This document shows, one piece after another, positions 12,980-28,160 of a stretch of 64,000 nt of DNA; the stretch's first letter is position 1, and every line of letters begins with the position of its first letter. Under the pieces are notes generated by a model. The model was not told where the DNA came from. It saw only the letters and a program-made list of their open reading frames with translations, and ran no database searches. The stretch lies in assembly GCA_013426755.1 (NCBI GenBank), contig AP019861.1:1254270-1318269 (forward strand). Reading direction: 5' to 3'. This stretch comes from Spirochaetota bacterium. Lineage in GTDB: Bacteria; Spirochaetota; UBA12135; COTS27. Made by a program: the position numbers and the translations under genes.

Positions 12980-14470
12980 TCAATTGAGTTTTTTGAATAA
13001 TTCCTGGCTACGTGCGTAGTAGTCTTTGACGTAATTTGGGTTGAGTTCGGAATTAACGAGGCTATCAATATCTTTACGTGCGAAGAGGGTAGTGAGGATT
13101 TTCTTACTCTGTTCTTTATCGCCGATTTTATAATAGGTGGCTGCGAGATTGTAATCGGAAATGAGATAGGAGAGGGAGGTACGGTAGGGATTTTTAGAAA
13201 TAGATTCTTGCCATTTCTTATAAAAAGCAATGATCTCTGGTGGGGATTTACTTTTGATATAGAGTTTGCCTGTATTTTCGTAAATGTTGAGGAAGTTTGG
13301 AAAATTGCTCTGGAAGTATTGGGTAACTTCGTTACCTTGTTCGAAGCGATTTTCGTAGGTGTAGATTTCAATGAGGCCGAGTCCGGCGAAGGAGCTTGCG
13401 AGAGTGCCTTTTTCGAAGGCACGTTTTAGATCGGCAATACCCTTAGTCTGTTGGCGGCGTTTTTGATACTTATTCATAAGCAATCCCAAATATGTTGCGT
13501 ACCAGTAGTCGTATAACCCAATGGCATAAAAGGAGTCATAAAAATCTTTACTTTGTTCGGTGGCGGATCGCATGTATTTGAGTCCTCTAAAAGCATCAGA
13601 GAAGGCTTTAGTGTAGTTATCGTAAGAGACGTGAAAAAGGCCGCGCACGCCGTAAGCGACACCGATGTAAAATTTTGCCCATATATCGTCTGAATTATTT
13701 TTTCTGAGCCATCTCTTACCTACTTTGATGGTTTTTTTTAGTTCTTCTTCTAAGCGGGCGGCGTATTCATAATTTTTAAGGTCGACAAAAATCAAGTAGT
13801 AGACGACGCTAGAATAAACATAGCTTACGGGGTGGTAGTCTGCGGTTTCTCTGAGTGAATTGAATATTTTAAGTCCTGTTTCGTAATTGCCATCGTATAC
13901 GGCGCGCATTCCCTCGCTGACCTTAGCGGAAAGTTTCTCGTCTAGGTCGGGTGAGATTGACACAATGGATGGAAAAGCTAGATCGCCATTAAAAATCTTG
14001 AGTTGTTCGGTAAGAATTTTGTTCTGGCTTTGAGTTGTTGCAGTCGGTGTATTAGGAGAAGACACTTGTTCTCTTTGGGCGAGCAAATGACCCAATTGAC
14101 CCAATTGATCCAATTGATCTAATTGACTCAATGGAGCAGCCAGATCAAATTGCTGAGAAGCCAAGAAGTCGAGTTGCTGAACAGTTATATTAGAATCAGA
14201 AGGTCTGTGTTGTTGTGTGTGGGAATTTTGGGCTGCTGCGGTATTAGGAGAAGATGGTTGTTCTGGTGGGGAGAATGGTTTTGTTGAGCGAAATTCATTT
14301 GTGTGAACAGGTTTTTCAGTCCCGAATGCTCCACCACTGAGTAGCGCTACCGATAATAAGGTTTTCAATAAACGAGACTTATAGGTACTTGTTAAAATAA
14401 TGTTAAGAACAATTTTACAAGCATTTCTGCTTTTATAAGCATTTCTGCTCAATATAGATTTATGATACAT
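12980..14470 (-). CDS. Secreted TPR-like helical-repeat protein, tandem paralog C
   Basis: 496-aa ORF, the third colinear paralog. The first ~30 codons (MYHKSILSRNAYKSRNACK...) have no counterpart in paralogs A and B, so the true start may lie further downstream (non-ATG). Confidence 0.65.
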   Translation of the reverse strand: MYHKSILSRNAYKSRNACKIVLNIILTSTYKSRLLKTLLSVALLSGGAFGTEKPVHTNEFRSTKPFSPPEQPSSPNTAAAQNSHTQQHRPSDSNITVQQLDFLASQQFDLAAPLSQLDQLDQLGQLGHLLAQREQVSSPNTPTATTQSQNKILTEQLKIFNGDLAFPSIVSISPDLDEKLSAKVSEGMRAVYDGNYETGLKIFNSLRETADYHPVSYVYSSVVYYLIFVDLKNYEYAARLEEELKKTIKVGKRWLRKNNSDDIWAKFYIGVAYGVRGLFHVSYDNYTKAFSDAFRGLKYMRSATEQSKDFYDSFYAIGLYDYWYATYLGLLMNKYQKRRQQTKGIADLKRAFEKGTLASSFAGLGLIEIYTYENRFEQGNEVTQYFQSNFPNFLNIYENTGKLYIKSKSPPEIIAFYKKWQESISKNPYRTSLSYLISDYNLAATYYKIGDKEQSKKILTTLFARKDIDSLVNSELNPNYVKDYYARSQELFKKLN

Positions 14471-14521
14471 TTGTATTCCTTTTAAACTTATACGGTTGTT
14501 ATACCAATATCCTACTTAGTT

Positions 14522-14861
14522 TTATTTAAACGGGGCACTGAATTATTTAAACGGGGTACTGAAATATTTTTATTGAAACTGGGTCGTGTTACCGAAATAT
14601 TTTACAACAATTTTACAATAACGTAATACATTGGTTGACTTATTTAAGTTCTACATTGACTGACTTCTACATTGATTGACTTATTTAAGTTTTTATCGTT
14701 AGATATTGAAATGCTTTGTGACAATTTTACAATAAAGTCATCTATACAAGCCATTTATATATTACTTACTTAGGTTCTTATTACTTATTTAGGTTCTGAC
14801 TGCTGGTCACTCAAATATTTTATAACAATTTTACAATAAAGCTACTCTCTTACAATAAAGC
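14522..14861. repeat. Composite intergenic repeats including three copies of the motif ACAATTTTACAATAA
   Basis: ttatttaaacgggg.actgaa occurs twice (14522-14563). The motif (a)acaattttacaataa occurs at 14604-14621, 14720-14737 and 14824-14841, with a partial fourth copy ttacaataaag near 14851. Smaller duplications lie between them (ttgacttatttaagtt x2, ttactta.ttaggttc x2). Confidence 0.8.
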
Positions 14862-15041
14862 TATTCTCTTATTAAAGAGTTCCTGCCATTAAATATTCTA
14901 GGATCAATTATTAATTCTTGATTATTATAACATAAATTCAGATGTCAATATGTTTTTTATAAAACATAAAACCAAGCATTATCAATCAAATATCATTAAT
15001 TAAAGACTATTAATTAATAAAAGAAACAACTAAACAATCAA

Positions 15042-22453: not shown

Positions 22454-23335
22454 ATGGACAGCAATTATTCTATTTACAATGGTGATTGCCTGGCTTGGTT
22501 TAAAGAATATAAAGAGAATAATATTGATCTTACCTTCTTAGATCCGCCATTCAATCAGAACAAAGAATATCGTTATTTTAATGATAATTTGTCAGAAAAT
22601 GAGTACTGGCAATTTATGTTAACAGCCCTCAAAGAAATATATCGCCTTTCTAAACCAGGTGCAAGTATTTATTTCATGCAGAGAGAAAAAAATACACAAT
22701 TCGTTCTAGAAAGCTTAAAAAACGCCGGCTGGACTTTCCACAACTTAATTATCTGGAAAAAAAAAACTTCTGCCGTCCCGTGTAAAAATAAATTTAGCAA
22801 GTCTTATCAGATTATTGCTTACGCTACCAAAGGAACTAAACCAACTACTTTTAATAAACTTCGTATCTCTCCTCCATTACCCGCCCATTATAAATACGAA
22901 AGAAAAAATGGACTTTATCTAACCGATGTTTGGGATGATATACGAGAACTCACATCAGGATATTTTGCTAGTGAAGAAGCCATTAGAAATAAAGACAATT
23001 CAAGATTTCACAAACAACAAACTCCCATTGCACTTCTACTTCGCATCCTACTCTCTTCATCCAAACGTGGAGACCTAATCCTTGATCCTTTTGCCGGTAC
23101 AGGAACTACCCTAGTCACCGCATTTCAATTAGACCGTAAAAGTATCGGCATAGAGATAGACCCTAAAAATATAGCCTGTATTACCTCAAGATTAAACCAT
23201 ATCTCCAAAGGCGACCGTATCAATAAATATTTAGACGACTATAAATACACTCAAAATTTACATTGTCTTCTTAAAGAAACCACCCCTGTTAAAACAGAAC
23301 CCCACCAACCCCTTTTTCAAAAAACACTCGTTTAA
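22454..23335 (+). CDS. DNA methyltransferase, N6-adenine/N4-cytosine family, beta-class motif order
   Basis: 293-aa ORF. The catalytic motif IV, FLDPPFNQ (DPPY-type), is near the N-terminus. The SAM-binding motif I, ILDPFAGTGTTLVTA, is near the C-terminus. The order IV then I defines the beta group. The region is more AT-rich than the flanking housekeeping genes. Confidence 0.85.
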   Translation: MDSNYSIYNGDCLAWFKEYKENNIDLTFLDPPFNQNKEYRYFNDNLSENEYWQFMLTALKEIYRLSKPGASIYFMQREKNTQFVLESLKNAGWTFHNLIIWKKKTSAVPCKNKFSKSYQIIAYATKGTKPTTFNKLRISPPLPAHYKYERKNGLYLTDVWDDIRELTSGYFASEEAIRNKDNSRFHKQQTPIALLLRILLSSSKRGDLILDPFAGTGTTLVTAFQLDRKSIGIEIDPKNIACITSRLNHISKGDRINKYLDDYKYTQNLHCLLKETTPVKTEPHQPLFQKTLV

Positions 23336-23405: not shown

Positions 23406-24272
23406 ATGCCGATTTATTCTATTTATCATTTCTTTAAAGAGGTATTAAAAAATAAAAATTTTCTTTTGACCTTAAAAAAATTAGAAAATTTTCCCTTCAA
23501 TTCTAATTTATTAGCTTGTCAAAACAAAGGACTTTTTCCTGATCTAGCTATTCGTATAAATAAAAATTCAAATAAAGATATAGCTTTATTTAGTGGAGGC
23601 GAATTAATAGAATTAAAAGACAGTAAGAGTTACTCCATCGCTTCTTTTAATTCTACCATTCCAACAGGCAAAAAAGAAATCAATAAAGTTATCACTTCTT
23701 CCAGTAGTACAATAAAAAAACAAATGGAAGCTAACGGTAATAATATTTATTCTTTGCCCGTAAGAGATGTCTTTTATTTAATTAGAGGATTAACAAAAAA
23801 TAATACAAAAGTTTGTCTCGTCCACGGCAGTTTCTTTGAAACACTTCCAATCGATAAATTAATTCAAAATAGTCTCGAACAATCTTTAAATGAACGCCTT
23901 CATGAACTTGATAAGAAATTACCAACAAAATGGAAAAATAAATTTTTGTCTTTGTTTACAAAACAAGAAAATTTCAGCCGTGTTAGAAATATCGAAAAAG
24001 CATCCGTAAAACTTCGTTTTAGAATTATGACCGAAATAAAAGCAGAAGGAAATATCTTAAACTCTAAAACATACCCCGAAATCTTAGACAATACTCTTAA
24101 TTTTATTTTACCTCTCCATCAATCCATCGAAGAGAGTAATATCTTTAAAAAAATGAATTTTGTTTTCACTCAAAATCAATTGAACCAATTCAAAATCTTT
24201 AAAATTAAGCACCTGCTCAACGGTTATTTCCTAGTCTTTCAAACAAGTTTATCAAAAAATCAATCAAAGTAA
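23406..24272 (+). CDS. Putative type II restriction endonuclease (candidate PD-ExK nuclease)
   Basis: 288-aa ORF lying 70 bp downstream of, and co-oriented with, the methyltransferase. It contains LFPD-x(22)-ELK (..GLFPDLAIRINKNSNKDIALFSGGELIELKDSK..), which fits the PD-(D/E)XK spacing. I recognise no other family signature. Confidence 0.5.
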   Translation: MPIYSIYHFFKEVLKNKNFLLTLKKLENFPFNSNLLACQNKGLFPDLAIRINKNSNKDIALFSGGELIELKDSKSYSIASFNSTIPTGKKEINKVITSSSSTIKKQMEANGNNIYSLPVRDVFYLIRGLTKNNTKVCLVHGSFFETLPIDKLIQNSLEQSLNERLHELDKKLPTKWKNKFLSLFTKQENFSRVRNIEKASVKLRFRIMTEIKAEGNILNSKTYPEILDNTLNFILPLHQSIEESNIFKKMNFVFTQNQLNQFKIFKIKHLLNGYFLVFQTSLSKNQSK

Positions 24273-24339: not shown

Positions 24340-25185
24340 TTAAAATGCAACGCTTTCTTTTTTAAGTAGTTCTGTAAAATTGATATAATCAACGTCAAAC
24401 TCCTCACAAACATTGGGAATCTTTATCTTCTTTGCCATTGGACCAGATTTAGTTTCTGCTGTAACAACCGTTATTCTCATATCAATAGCTTTAGCAATAA
24501 GCAATCCGTCTGCAGCTAATTCGTCTGAGCCACCCATGCCCATGAAGTCCTGGTTAATTTCTTGAATATCCCTCCTTGATTTTACCTTCTTATCTTTTTT
24601 ATTTATATAATAATCAGCTATCTTAATTATTTCCTTTTTTACATGCTCTGAAACGATTTTACGCGAAGCACTGCTATTATCTAATATCAGTTTCTTTTTT
24701 AGAGGTTTTAATATCGATTCTAGAGATTCTAATATCAGTTTTAGAGATTTTGATATCTGTTCCTTTTCACTCGAAGCACTGACATCATTTAATATTAGTT
24801 CTAGAGATTTTGATATCTGTTCATCCTTTGGTAAAGATTTATGATGTATTAGCGTACTAGCATGATGATTTAATATATTGGTAATTAAGCTTTTTGCTTT
24901 ATCATGTACAGCGTCAATTGTCTGTATTTTCCCAGACTGAATATTTTGCTTAATAATCTTATCAAGAGATCTAAATAATATATTGATAATCGAGCTTTGG
25001 GCTTGATTGTATACAGCGTCAATTGTCTGTATTTTCTCAGACTGAATATTTTGCCTAATAATCTTATCGAGAGATCTAAATACATCATGAGGGTAAAATC
25101 TTTCTAAATTGATAAAACAATTAGCATCTAGTAAATACTTAGACTGAAACGTCTTAATGAATTGAGAAGCAGTTTTCTGTTCCAC
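24340..25185 (-). CDS. DUF4411-type PIN-like nuclease (putative toxin) with internal duplications
   Basis: 281-aa ORF. The N-terminal YLLDANCFINLERFYPHDVF and the C-terminal AADGLLIAKAIDMRITVVTAETKSG...KIPNVCEEFDVDYINFTELL match the two conserved ends of the DUF4411 PIN-like family as I recall it. The middle contains a 35-aa tandem duplication and SKSLxLIL repeats. Confidence 0.65.
   Translation of the reverse strand: MEQKTASQFIKTFQSKYLLDANCFINLERFYPHDVFRSLDKIIRQNIQSEKIQTIDAVYNQAQSSIINILFRSLDKIIKQNIQSGKIQTIDAVHDKAKSLITNILNHHASTLIHHKSLPKDEQISKSLELILNDVSASSEKEQISKSLKLILESLESILKPLKKKLILDNSSASRKIVSEHVKKEIIKIADYYINKKDKKVKSRRDIQEINQDFMGMGGSDELAADGLLIAKAIDMRITVVTAETKSGPMAKKIKIPNVCEEFDVDYINFTELLKKESVAF
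24874..25083. repeat. 105-bp coding tandem duplication (35 aa x2) inside the PIN-like gene
   Basis: acagcgtcaattgtctgtatttt occurs at 24908 and 25013. The protein copies are FRSLDKIIRQNIQSEKIQTIDAVYNQAQSSIINIL and FRSLDKIIKQNIQSGKIQTIDAVHDKAKSLITNIL. Confidence 0.9.
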
Positions 25186-25235
25186 AGTATAGAATACACC
25201 ACTTACAATAAATAAAAAATTATTGTTCTAACCTC

Positions 25236-26789
25236 TTAGATTTTACTTAACATTTTTTCTAATTTCTTAGATTTAAGTTGTTCGTAATCAAGCCCCAATA
25301 ACCGCCGGGTATCCGTATAAAGCATCCTGTTCTCGAAGAACTCATCGATAGCCGCATTTATAAAAGGCCTCCCCCCTAACCTATAAGGCAGCGTAGCCCA
25401 GAAATCGCCACCACCTTTCTGGCTTGTTGTTCTTTCTTTTTTATTAGAGGTCACTTTCCAGCTCCTATTAAAGTCCTCTTTTTCTATCAGGCCGGTAAGA
25501 TAGGCGCGTATAAGAACAACTTGAAAACTAATTTTGTATCTGTTAACTATCTTTTTACAGATCTCTTCATAATCATGACTGTCATGACCACCACTAAAAA
25601 GCTCCCAATCTCTCCTGATGATTTCATCAGGTAGTAAAACTTTTCCAGCAATACGATTACATCGCTTTTCTTGAGAAAAATTCTCTTTTGAGATCGAAGT
25701 GTCTACATCGATCATATCCACTAGTCCAGAATGTCTTAACTGCAGGTGCGCTAGTTCATGGGCAAGCGTAAAAATCTGAGCCTGCTTTGATAGAGCACCA
25801 TTGATAAATATAAGTGGAGCGTGTGTATCGTATAACGCAAAACCACAAAATTCCTCGACATTTAAGGGTCGGCGAGTATTATTCCCCACACAACCATTAC
25901 GCATAACCATAATGTCTCTGATAACAACCGTTTCAATAAGATTTTTGATTTTTTTATCAGAATCCAGATAATCATCTTTTTTATCTAAATCTAAAAATTC
26001 ACGAATATCGTTTGCTATCAGATCATCATCAGCTTCCTTTAAATCCTTATCAAATCCTGCTAATCCACTAAACTTCCTATACCCATTACCAAGTTTATAG
26101 TCGCGATACCATCTCTGCTTACTTCTAGCGTCTCTTATAACATCGAGCAGCGCAGGCGTAGGTGTCCTAATTATTTTATTACCATAAGTTCTAAAATCTG
26201 TAATCGGTAGCTTGATGTCCTCCTCAGTCAGTTTCCTATCAATAAAAAGATAACCGAATCCAATGTGAAATTTCTTTGCTAATCCCTCGAGTTGCTTCCA
26301 AGTAGGCGGAAGCGACCGTTTATTTTCCCAATTTTCATAGTTCTTATGAATCTTATGAAGTTTTTGCTTTAACTCTGACTGCCAGTAGTTCTCTTCTTCA
26401 TTATCATATTTTTTTTGTTGCTCTTTGGTTAAGTAACTCCATTTCTCATAGACCCATCGCTTTCTAGCCCATCGCAGATTATATGTATTGATCCAAAAAA
26501 CAGTTGACTTTATTTTAGACAGTTTCTTTTTGATAAGAAAATAGCCTAGTGCAACATTAAACTTTTCTGCCAATTCCTCGAGTTGGTTTTCAGTAGGAAT
26601 TAACTCGCCCTTTTCCCAATCTTTATACTTCTCATGAAGTTCTGGCTCCAATACGGACTGCCAGTAGGTCTCTTTTTTATTATCATAGTTACCCTTTTTT
26701 GCCTTAACTAAGCACCGCCACCGCATATCAATCCACCGTTCCCTAGCCCACCGCAGATTATCTCTATTAATATAAGTAGTCGTCATCAT
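25236..26789 (-). CDS. ImmA/IrrE-family (COG2856) zinc metallopeptidase with a duplicated N-terminal XRE-like module
   Basis: 517-aa ORF. The HExxH zinc motif lies in FTLAHELAHLQLRH, preceded by the typical DFR...ALLDVIRDAR..QRWYRDY segment. The N-terminus has two ~95-aa copies of a module (NLRWAR.RW ... W...P....QLE.LA.KF....GY.FI..KL) resembling the HTH part of XRE-ImmA fusions. It is upstream of, and co-oriented with, the PIN-like gene (50-bp gap). Confidence 0.75.
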   Translation of the reverse strand: MMTTTYINRDNLRWARERWIDMRWRCLVKAKKGNYDNKKETYWQSVLEPELHEKYKDWEKGELIPTENQLEELAEKFNVALGYFLIKKKLSKIKSTVFWINTYNLRWARKRWVYEKWSYLTKEQQKKYDNEEENYWQSELKQKLHKIHKNYENWENKRSLPPTWKQLEGLAKKFHIGFGYLFIDRKLTEEDIKLPITDFRTYGNKIIRTPTPALLDVIRDARSKQRWYRDYKLGNGYRKFSGLAGFDKDLKEADDDLIANDIREFLDLDKKDDYLDSDKKIKNLIETVVIRDIMVMRNGCVGNNTRRPLNVEEFCGFALYDTHAPLIFINGALSKQAQIFTLAHELAHLQLRHSGLVDMIDVDTSISKENFSQEKRCNRIAGKVLLPDEIIRRDWELFSGGHDSHDYEEICKKIVNRYKISFQVVLIRAYLTGLIEKEDFNRSWKVTSNKKERTTSQKGGGDFWATLPYRLGGRPFINAAIDEFFENRMLYTDTRRLLGLDYEQLKSKKLEKMLSKI

Positions 26790-26888: not shown

Positions 26889-26957
26889 TATTATATAATC
26901 TTATACAGATTATTATATAATCTTATACAAATTATTGTATAATTTTATACGAATTAT
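26889..26957. repeat. 22-bp direct repeat x3 in the divergent ImmA / rsmA promoter region
   Basis: The copies are tattatataatcttatacagat, tattatataatcttatacaaat and tattgtataattttatacgaat, lying 100-170 bp upstream of the ImmA start. Confidence 0.85.
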
Positions 26958-27011
26958 TCTACTAAAAATCTCATTTAAAACAAATGGGTAACACTGTAAC
27001 ATTGAAAGAAA

Positions 27012-28160
27012 TTGTTAGCATTGAAAGACATTGTTTTTAAAGACCTCACCAGTCCGCGTGAGCTGCAGCACGTTCTCACCAACCACCCAAAATCAATCAA
27101 AAAATCACTCGGACAACATTATCTCATTGATAAAAATATTGTCAGAAAGATAACAGCACTCATTGAGACCACAACCTCCATCGCCAAAGCCTCCACGCAA
27201 GCAACTCAGATCATTGAAATCGGAGCTGGGCTCGGCACACTCACCGCTTCCTTGCTTTCTACTTCTACTCAAAGTCGTATCATTGCCATCGAAGTAGAAC
27301 AAACCTCCGCCCACCTCCTAAAAAATAACATCAATCCTAACACCGTAAGTATAGTCTCTACACCTAAAGACCTAAGAACGGCGCCCCCACCCGCTCTCAT
27401 GATCATAACAGCAGATGTCTTTGCTTACCCCTGGCCTACCCTCTTACAAGCTCTCGCAGGTCATAAAATAACTTTTGTTGGAAACCTTCCCTACCGCATA
27501 GCTACGCGGCTAATTATTTATCTACTCGAAAATTACGCATTCCTTACCTATGACATGGTCTTTATGGTCCAGCGCGAAGTTGCCCAGAAACTCACAGCAA
27601 CACCCTCATTTTCTCCCCCTCCCAGTCAATCTACACTTAATAAAGCCACACAAAATAGCACACCTAAAAAAACACCCACCACCCATTCTACCGCCAGAGG
27701 AACATACGGCGTAGCCACCCTCCTTATCACCTGGCACGCCACCGTGCGTTGTCATTTCTCTGTTTCGCCCAATTCATTTTATCCTAAACCTAAGATAACC
27801 AGTCAAATAATTAGCATCAAACCCAAACCAGACCTAACTACCCAAACCGTCTCAATAACTTCAATAGACCCAACGACCACGCATCAAGTACCACAAAAAC
27901 AATTATACCCACTCTTCAAACAGATCATCAAAACGGCATTCTCAAAACGGAGAAAAACTATTCAAAATGCCCTACACACAATCGAACCCGATAAAAAACT
28001 GCTCACACAACGTCTGCTCACAGCAAACATTGACCCCAAGTCTCGCCCAGAACAACTCTCTCTCGCTGCTTACACCCACCTAGCCACACTCTTTTACTCC
28101 CCCACGGAGCCCAAGCATGCCCAGACCCACTCATCATCCCCCATCTCCTATCCTCCCTAA
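27012..28160 (+). CDS. rsmA: 16S rRNA (adenine1518/1519-N6)-dimethyltransferase RsmA/KsgA with a low-complexity insertion and C-terminal extension
   Basis: The motifs KKSLGQHYLIDKNIV, IIEIGAGLGTLT (SAM site), GNLPYRIATRLI and MVQREVAQKL are present in the canonical order. At 382 aa it is longer than the usual ~270 aa, owing to a P/S/T-rich insert (TATPSFSPPPSQSTLNKATQNSTPKKTPTTHST) and a tail. The start is an apparent TTG, because no in-frame ATG lies upstream of the first motif. Confidence 0.85.
   Translation: MLALKDIVFKDLTSPRELQHVLTNHPKSIKKSLGQHYLIDKNIVRKITALIETTTSIAKASTQATQIIEIGAGLGTLTASLLSTSTQSRIIAIEVEQTSAHLLKNNINPNTVSIVSTPKDLRTAPPPALMIITADVFAYPWPTLLQALAGHKITFVGNLPYRIATRLIIYLLENYAFLTYDMVFMVQREVAQKLTATPSFSPPPSQSTLNKATQNSTPKKTPTTHSTARGTYGVATLLITWHATVRCHFSVSPNSFYPKPKITSQIISIKPKPDLTTQTVSITSIDPTTTHQVPQKQLYPLFKQIIKTAFSKRRKTIQNALHTIEPDKKLLTQRLLTANIDPKSRPEQLSLAAYTHLATLFYSPTEPKHAQTHSSSPISYPP

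Follow-up and report, generated by a model that had tools for sequence, protein, structure and literature searches.

The window analysed here is a 64,000-nucleotide (nt) stretch of the genome of COTS27, a Spirochaetota bacterium that lives in symbiosis with crown-of-thorns starfish (contig AP019861.1, positions 1,254,270 to 1,318,269; assembly of 2,684,921 bp, 39.6% GC). On its minus strand it carries a two-gene cassette, in which a gene for a helix-turn-helix (HTH)-ImmA/IrrE antitoxin is followed by a gene for a DUF4411 PIN-like toxin. The account that we consider likely is that this is a horizontally acquired toxin-antitoxin (TA) and anti-phage cassette of the VapBC52 type, in which repeats have lengthened each of the genes, the antitoxin has remained intact and the toxin has become attenuated or dead.

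The antitoxin or regulator gene (25236–26789, minus strand) encodes a VapB52/RmrA-like protein of 517 amino acids (aa) with a Peptidase_M78 domain, and the toxin gene (24340–25185, minus strand) has a GTG start and encodes 281 aa. The coordinates and lengths of both open reading frames (ORFs) were exactly those given in an earlier note on this DNA. Its two family assignments were also confirmed by profile searches: the toxin matched DUF4411 (PF14367) with an E-value of 1e-22 and 81.1 bits (Pfam cut-off 23.5 bits), and the antitoxin matched Peptidase_M78 with an E-value of 5e-16 (Pfam). The antitoxin was matched less strongly by the spr1629 repressor/antitoxin family and by three PADLOC models, RmrA, PDC-M69B and capP. 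The DUF4411 gene lay directly downstream of the HTH-DUF955/ImmA gene, as membership of the family demands. The order M78 then DUF4411 was found to be kept in Nitrospira inopinata and in metagenome contigs, where the two proteins have 382–384 aa and 166 aa, the genes overlap by 4 nt, and the pairs sit within defence islands with type I restriction-modification (R-M) and AbiE genes. Together with the HTH-DUF955 (COG2856) plus DUF4411.1 pairs that Matelska et al. (2017, PMC5499597) predicted to be three-domain TA modules, these examples bore out the earlier description of the pair as a recurrent two-gene cassette. In COTS27 the genes are likewise co-oriented, and the toxin gene starts 50 nt downstream of the ImmA stop. 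With this spacer and the GTG start in place of the 4-nt overlap usual among relatives, the translational coupling of the toxin to the ImmA gene has been lost.

Cassettes of this kind had been described in the earlier note as little studied, which did not hold: VapBC52 of Mycobacterium tuberculosis (Rv2515c/Rv2514c type; Singh et al., NAR 2026, PMC13273310) has been characterised, and crystal structures exist. The family profiles matched both chains of PDB 9VZY (antitoxin, E 2.9e-45 to 9vzy_A; toxin, E 7e-17), which are a 393-aa 'HTH cro/C1-type' protein and a 162-aa DUF4411 protein. On the basis of the molecule names and of the chain counts (three antitoxin, six toxin), which match the asymmetric unit reported in PMC13273310, PDB 9VZY/9VZZ is M. 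tuberculosis VapBC52. It was reported in that study (PMC13273310) that VapC52, the DUF4411 toxin, cleaves tRNA; that VapB52 and the toxin dimer bind in a 1:2 ratio, one of the two protomers carrying the only N-terminal domain on its outer face; that the N-terminal domain is essential for binding and the C-terminal domain occludes the toxin active site; that single-stranded DNA (ssDNA) switches on the HExxH peptidase of VapB52, which then cuts off its own N-terminal domain at a conserved FR motif; and that VapBC52 protects against a mycobacteriophage.

The COTS27 pair shares with VapBC52 the order of a large antitoxin (XRE-like N-terminal domain, ImmA/IrrE peptidase and C-terminal domain) and then a DUF4411 PIN toxin. 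Also shared are the FR motif, HExxH, Glu zinc ligand and C-terminal domain of the antitoxin, and the Asp of strand β1, a further Asp and a Glu in the active site of the toxin. The differences are that the COTS27 antitoxin has two N-terminal domains, each with an insertion of ∼21 aa, and Val at the Cys-switch position; that the toxin numbers 281 aa (∼160 in VapBC52), contains a second copy of a helix 2/strand 2/helix 3 segment and a repeat-derived, unalignable middle, and lacks the second catalytic Glu; and that the genes are separated by 50 nt instead of overlapping and belong to a starfish symbiont. By homology with VapBC52, the N-terminal XRE-like domain of the antitoxin would grip the toxin dimer and the C-terminal domain would plug the toxin active site. 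Exposure of ssDNA by phage attack or DNA damage would activate the HExxH peptidase, which would cut the antitoxin's own linker at the FR motif (F199/R200) and so free the tRNA-cleaving toxin.

The antitoxin, for which 896 homologs were found, exceeds its relatives, which have 366–409 aa, by ∼130 aa. Antitoxins of the VapB52 type are characterised by a single XRE-like domain of five helices that binds the toxin; the relatives carry one N-terminal XRE-like module and the COTS27 protein two in tandem. Module 2 (aa 99–188; 26226–26495, minus strand) aligned with the single N-terminal domain of the family, and module 1 (aa 6–91; 26517–26774, minus strand) is an extra XRE-like copy without counterpart in homologs. 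The two modules shared 48% protein identity (E 2e-26, BLASTP) and 69% nt identity. The HTH_3 signature was below threshold (E of 0.009 for module 1, no match for module 2), so that the earlier wording of two tandem, degenerate HTH-like modules was accurate. An insertion of ∼21 aa follows the motif WARER in each module; because both carry it, it predates the module duplication. In the AlphaFold2 model of the antitoxin (predicted local distance difference test score, pLDDT, 83; predicted template modelling score 0.78), module 1 had pLDDT values of 43–75 and module 2 of 74–93. The top Foldseek matches of this model were IrrE/PprI with a probability of 1.00, and an XRE-DUF955 regulator of M. tuberculosis was also matched. 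A metagenome ImmA homolog of 471 aa showed an independent partial duplication of its N-terminal XRE-like module (FIKPEL..WAREH occurs twice), and the domain has therefore been doubled more than once.

Conservation was assessed in alignments with 98 homologs for the antitoxin and 75 for the toxin; both sets consist of the best profile matches and are thus biased towards consensus-like members. The FR motif of the antitoxin (D198-F199-R200-T201; 26187–26198, minus strand), which is the predicted self-cleavage site and lies where the N-terminal domain meets the middle domain, has its Arg in 98 of 98 homologs and its Phe in 84, and both residues are kept in COTS27. Reading of the sequence located this motif after module 2 only, with none behind module 1, and a cut at the single FR motif would release the doubled toxin-binding domain in one piece. 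The zinc-peptidase core (aa 320–429; 25503–25832, minus strand; Pfam) contains H344-E345-x-x-H348 and the third ligand E374; the HExxH motif was found in all 98 homologs and the Glu in 96, and both are kept. The zinc-ligand residues H344, H348 and E374 correspond to H216, H220 and E245 of VapB52. The C-terminal domain, which is helical in VapB52-type antitoxins, aligned over its whole length with pLDDT of 90–96, with the conserved residues G460, G461, F463, R470 and F476 and the GGGDF motif kept. Overall, the antitoxin retained 25 of the 25 columns invariant in the 98 homologs, 94% of the columns conserved in ≥97% of homologs and 82% of those conserved in ≥90%.

All determinants defined in VapB52, namely the FR motif, HExxH, the third zinc ligand and the C-terminal domain, are thus present in the COTS27 antitoxin, which, judged from its residues, is probably functional. 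One substitution, K383 for a nearly invariant Glu, was considered as a sign of inactivation and rejected, since VapB52 has Ala there. A Cys switch like that of VapB52 or CapP was rejected as a mode of regulation in this subfamily, because 78 of the 98 homologs have Ser at the position and the COTS27 protein has Val.

The toxin presented a different picture. It has 281 aa, ∼110 aa more than its relatives; the family is characterised by one compact PIN domain of ∼155–180 aa, and all 120 relatives among the profile-search matches listed have 159–179 aa. A phmmer search of 1.84e9 representatives gave a best non-self E-value of 6.5e-10, through the termini only, and found no close relative; the longest protein among the matches listed had ≤216 aa. 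A 105-nt unit present in 2.0 copies was detected at 24871–25082 by Tandem Repeats Finder (TRF), with 88% matches and no indels. Copy 1 (aa 36–70; 24976–25080, minus strand) spans helix 2 and strand 2 and reaches into the beginning of helix 3; directly after it comes copy 2 (aa 71–105; 24871–24975, minus strand). The 35-aa copies were 77% identical (E 3e-18). They differ at 12 nt, with 9 of the 12 differences lying within codons 59–67, and their first 71 nt are 96% identical. The 88% nt identity of these copies, compared with 69% for the antitoxin modules, indicated that the toxin duplication is much younger.

The DUF4411 profile matched the toxin in two pieces, positions 1–48 on aa 17–63 and positions 93–159 on aa 208–281. 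Because copy 1 matches profile positions 1–48 and aligns to homologs, it is the native DUF4411 segment, and copy 2 therefore duplicates part of the domain instead of being foreign sequence. The AlphaFold2 model likewise built the core from copy 1 (strand at aa 52–54, pLDDT ∼87–90). The 35-aa duplication proposed in the earlier note was hence real; its description as an insertion between the two halves of the protein was not correct. Farther downstream, nested short repeats occupy the unalignable middle (24700–24822, minus strand). These comprise a pair with a 60-nt period at 24790–24822 and 24730–24762 (aa 122–132 and 142–152; 94% nt identity), which encodes EQISKSLELIL and EQISKSLKLIL, and a 21-nt array of 2.8 copies at 24700–24757 (TRF). 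They account for the SKSL-type repeats noticed before; the region had pLDDT values of 42–59 and contributed no bits to the DUF4411 score.

Inspection of the active site showed that D20, D226, E244 and the PNVC motif, all invariant in the family, are kept in the COTS27 toxin. However, the invariant Glu of SIDRVKxEL, found in 75 of 75 homologs and in the VapC52 chain, is replaced in both copies, by Q61 in the first and by K96 in the second. The active site therefore holds three of the four conserved acidic residues, and the family was defined by four conserved, negatively charged active-site residues (PMC5499597). W40, W127 and W154 are lost as well. Among the columns conserved in ≥90% of homologs, the toxin kept 53%, compared with a minimum of 72% and a median of 98% for the homologs themselves, and a canonical DUF4411 member scored 199 bits against the 81.1 bits of the COTS27 protein. 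The idea that the domain is intact and only broken up by clean insertions was rejected, because in-silico removal of the repeats restored neither the score (80–87 bits, slightly better at 86.7 when only copy 2 was retained) nor a match in the middle. The AlphaFold2 model of the toxin (pLDDT 69) was confident only at aa 14–50 and 220–280, which flank a long helical middle of low confidence, and it contained four strands instead of the five-stranded parallel sheet of the family. When the whole toxin model was compared with the PDB by Foldseek, nothing significant was found (best E 0.11), the weak top matches being the PIN-like HARP/PRORP; the low-confidence middle spoils this comparison, so it supports neither side.

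The loss of the catalytic Glu and the core aromatics, the duplication of a core strand, the unrecognisable middle and the lost coupling together suggest that the toxin is probably attenuated or inactive, with its frame still open (one stop, the terminal one, compared with 25 and 36 in the other frames). This corresponds to the second of two alternatives offered in the earlier note, namely that the toxin had been disarmed by the repeat-generating process while the ORF stayed open, and it is the one now favoured. The same note had held that missing catalytic residues would count against its proposal; one of the four acids is gone and the other three are present.

Several observations weigh against such a loss of activity. 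Conservation is good at three of the four acids, in PNVC and throughout the C-terminal half of the toxin, and D95, which lies beside the lost Glu position in copy 2, might substitute for the Glu. At 31% GC the reading frame stays open through 281 codons, compared with 25–36 stops in the other frames, and all repeats are in frame, which favours continued selection on the protein. The ratio of nonsynonymous to synonymous substitution rates (dN/dS) between the two 105-nt copies was 0.46, calculated from only 12 differences. The middle of the toxin may tolerate insertions, since the equivalent region of VapC52 is partly disordered in the crystals. In addition, the consensus bias of the homolog sets exaggerates the outlier status of both cassette proteins.

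A fully functional system, in which the PIN-like toxin accommodates its extra segments as excursions at the surface, retains RNase activity and serves a normal VapBC52-type addiction or defence module, seems doubtful to us, though it deserves serious weight. It fits the in-frame repeats and open frame, the retention of D20, D226, E244 and PNVC with confidently modelled core ends, and the flexible middle of VapC52. Three acids also suffice in some PIN-like families, for which variable counts have been tabulated (PMC5499597), and an intact antitoxin is best understood where a toxin still has to be neutralised. Yet the Glu present in every aligned homolog and in VapC52 is missing from both copies, invariant Trp and aromatic positions are lost with only 53% of the conserved columns kept, and translational coupling is gone. 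The duplicated unit, moreover, takes in a core β-strand, which goes beyond a loop, and no fifth strand was modelled. We therefore return to an attenuated or dead toxin beside a working antitoxin as the likely state of the pair.

Decay might also have gone further, so that the whole cassette is a relic in which neither protein works and the frames are open only because the decay is recent. COTS27 lives as a restricted symbiont, and its genome evolves fast and is riddled with repeats; both proteins are conservation outliers, the HTH signature is sub-threshold, and truncated toxin genes are known from cassettes of this type elsewhere (a 95-aa DUF4411 fragment). Nevertheless, we consider this improbable, as ImmA keeps all invariant residues and nearly all of the most conserved columns, its two modules have stayed in frame over 517 codons despite the age of the duplication (69% nt identity), and the alternative frames of the toxin gene are rich in stops.

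The occurrence of duplications in both partners, to which the earlier note had drawn attention, was verified; it was not, however, peculiar to this pair. A TRF survey of the whole genome detected 2016 tandem-repeat loci, which make up 8.7% of the COTS27 genome and 19% of the window. Repeats were found in 249 of the 1311 long ORFs (≥200 aa), that is 19%, and 393 of the 411 intragenic repeats had a period divisible by three. Genic tandem repeats were also described in the COTS27 paper, which found neither transposable elements nor prophages. Since in-frame repeats hit so many of the long ORFs, repeats in two adjacent genes are the expected background. The repeats of the cassette are individually far beyond chance; the adjacency of two repeat-bearing genes is unremarkable in COTS27. 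A genome-wide process of in-frame tandem duplication would thus have hit both genes, doubling the N-terminal domain of the antitoxin long ago and producing the 105-nt duplication of the toxin recently, along with its shorter repeats. In a same-genus genome (G001), the 3' part of fumC recurs as two partial copies in tandem (L015:12383-13433) just downstream of the intact fumC (13557–14933, minus strand), and the repeat-making habit is therefore also present in a congener.

The published COTS27 assembly had 23 gaps, all of which fell in genic tandem repeats, and this raised the question of whether the duplications are artefacts of short-read hologenome assembly. We find this barely credible: 12 differences separate the 105-nt copies and 31% of positions differ between the ImmA modules, so that the sequences are distinguishable and do not represent identical units collapsed or expanded in assembly, and the cassette contains no Ns. 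A more elaborate idea is that the duplications are functionally matched, the interacting parts of the two proteins having been co-duplicated into a TA complex with a new stoichiometry or tighter neutralisation. Tandem N-terminal domains could then clamp both toxin protomers, or dock on the duplicated helix 2/strand 2/helix 3 surface. We regard this as quite improbable.

Besides VapBC52, several other systems were compared with the pair. The modules of Matelska et al. share its domain content, gene order and nearby R-M genes; they differ in that four acidic residues are required, of which the COTS27 toxin has three. ImmA-type proteins are also the RmrA antitoxins of RosmerTA, which are associated with PIN-like toxins (PMC10440598, NetFlax; Millman et al. 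2022). RosmerTA and the COTS27 pair have in common an antitoxin with an HTH at its N terminus and a zinc peptidase of the ImmA type, whereas the RmrA matches were weak (E 8e-13 to 1e-5) and confined mainly to the peptidase part, and the toxin gave no RmrT match. PADLOC contains no model for canonical DUF4411 proteins, and neither these nor the COTS27 toxin gave a match; assignment of the pair to one of its named systems was therefore rejected. CapP/CapH of the cyclic oligonucleotide-based antiphage signalling system (CBASS) and IrrE/DdrO of Deinococcus share the IrrE fold and a peptidase activated by ssDNA or DNA damage (PADLOC capP, E 4.5e-11). These peptidases cut a separate repressor and so turn on transcription, unlike the COTS27 pair, for which, as for VapB52, the expected substrate is the antitoxin's own linker and the expected output is freed toxin.

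The cassette is convergent with a gene for an N6/N4 DNA methyltransferase (22454–23335, plus strand; Pfam N6_N4_Mtase, E 1.5e-44), and between them lies an orphan ORF of 288 aa (23406–24272, plus strand) that matched no Pfam, NCBIfam or PADLOC family and that, by its position, may be the cognate restriction endonuclease. The GC content was 31–38% in the cassette, 35% in the methyltransferase gene and 28% in the 288-aa ORF, compared with 46–49% in the flanking core genes and 39.6% in the genome, and the three together are a low-GC island. The absence of the cassette was checked in 40 relatives, in which no DUF4411 homologs were found except for one weak match in a distant genome. In the same-genus genome the ksgA-fumC synteny is kept, and a different methyltransferase and a sugar kinase stand at the cassette site; this genome was consequently dropped as a source of orthologs for dN/dS. 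The low GC of the cassette, its absence from the relatives and the other genes at the syntenic site argue for horizontal acquisition. The cassette would have been gained with the R-M pair, in a variable low-GC island.

Direct repeats of 22 bp in 3.2 copies were found upstream of the ImmA gene (26889–26958; TRF) and are a candidate promoter/operator. A promoter scan placed the best minus-strand sigma70-like match within them (TATACA-18-TATAAT, 10/12, 26941–26912), and on these sequence features the array may serve as promoter and operator at once. Beyond it, the gene for KsgA/RsmA (27012–28160) encodes a low-complexity insertion rich in Pro, Ser and Thr, and the protein has 39–45% identity to its same-genus ortholog; such low identity within a genus shows the fast evolution of the lineage.

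The cassette type is already known, and the novelty of the COTS27 pair is fairly ordinary, limited to a repeat-inflated variant. Alone it matters little, as the type has been characterised and the duplications are explained by the genome-wide habit. It does offer a natural experiment on the insertion tolerance of the PIN/DUF4411 fold and of a VapB52-type antitoxin, and would be a further example, in this cassette family, of a toxin decaying faster than its antitoxin or regulator. The broader phenomenon merits more attention: a 2.7-Mb symbiont genome of which 8.7% is tandem repeats, with in-frame repeats in one of five long ORFs.

Three further observations concerned ImmA-type proteins elsewhere. 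The gene for the closest ImmA homolog (38% identity) overlaps a RelA_SpoT (toxSAS-like) gene and not a DUF4411 gene, which means that the antitoxin subfamily swaps toxins. Another close homolog has downstream of it only the 95-aa DUF4411 fragment mentioned above; the island also contains ParE-like and BrnT toxins, and here too a truncated toxin stands next to an antitoxin that is intact. Finally, COTS27 itself has a second M78 peptidase at ∼1902000, a stand-alone protein of 196 aa with the motif HEFAH, whose gene adjoins that of a small membrane protein.

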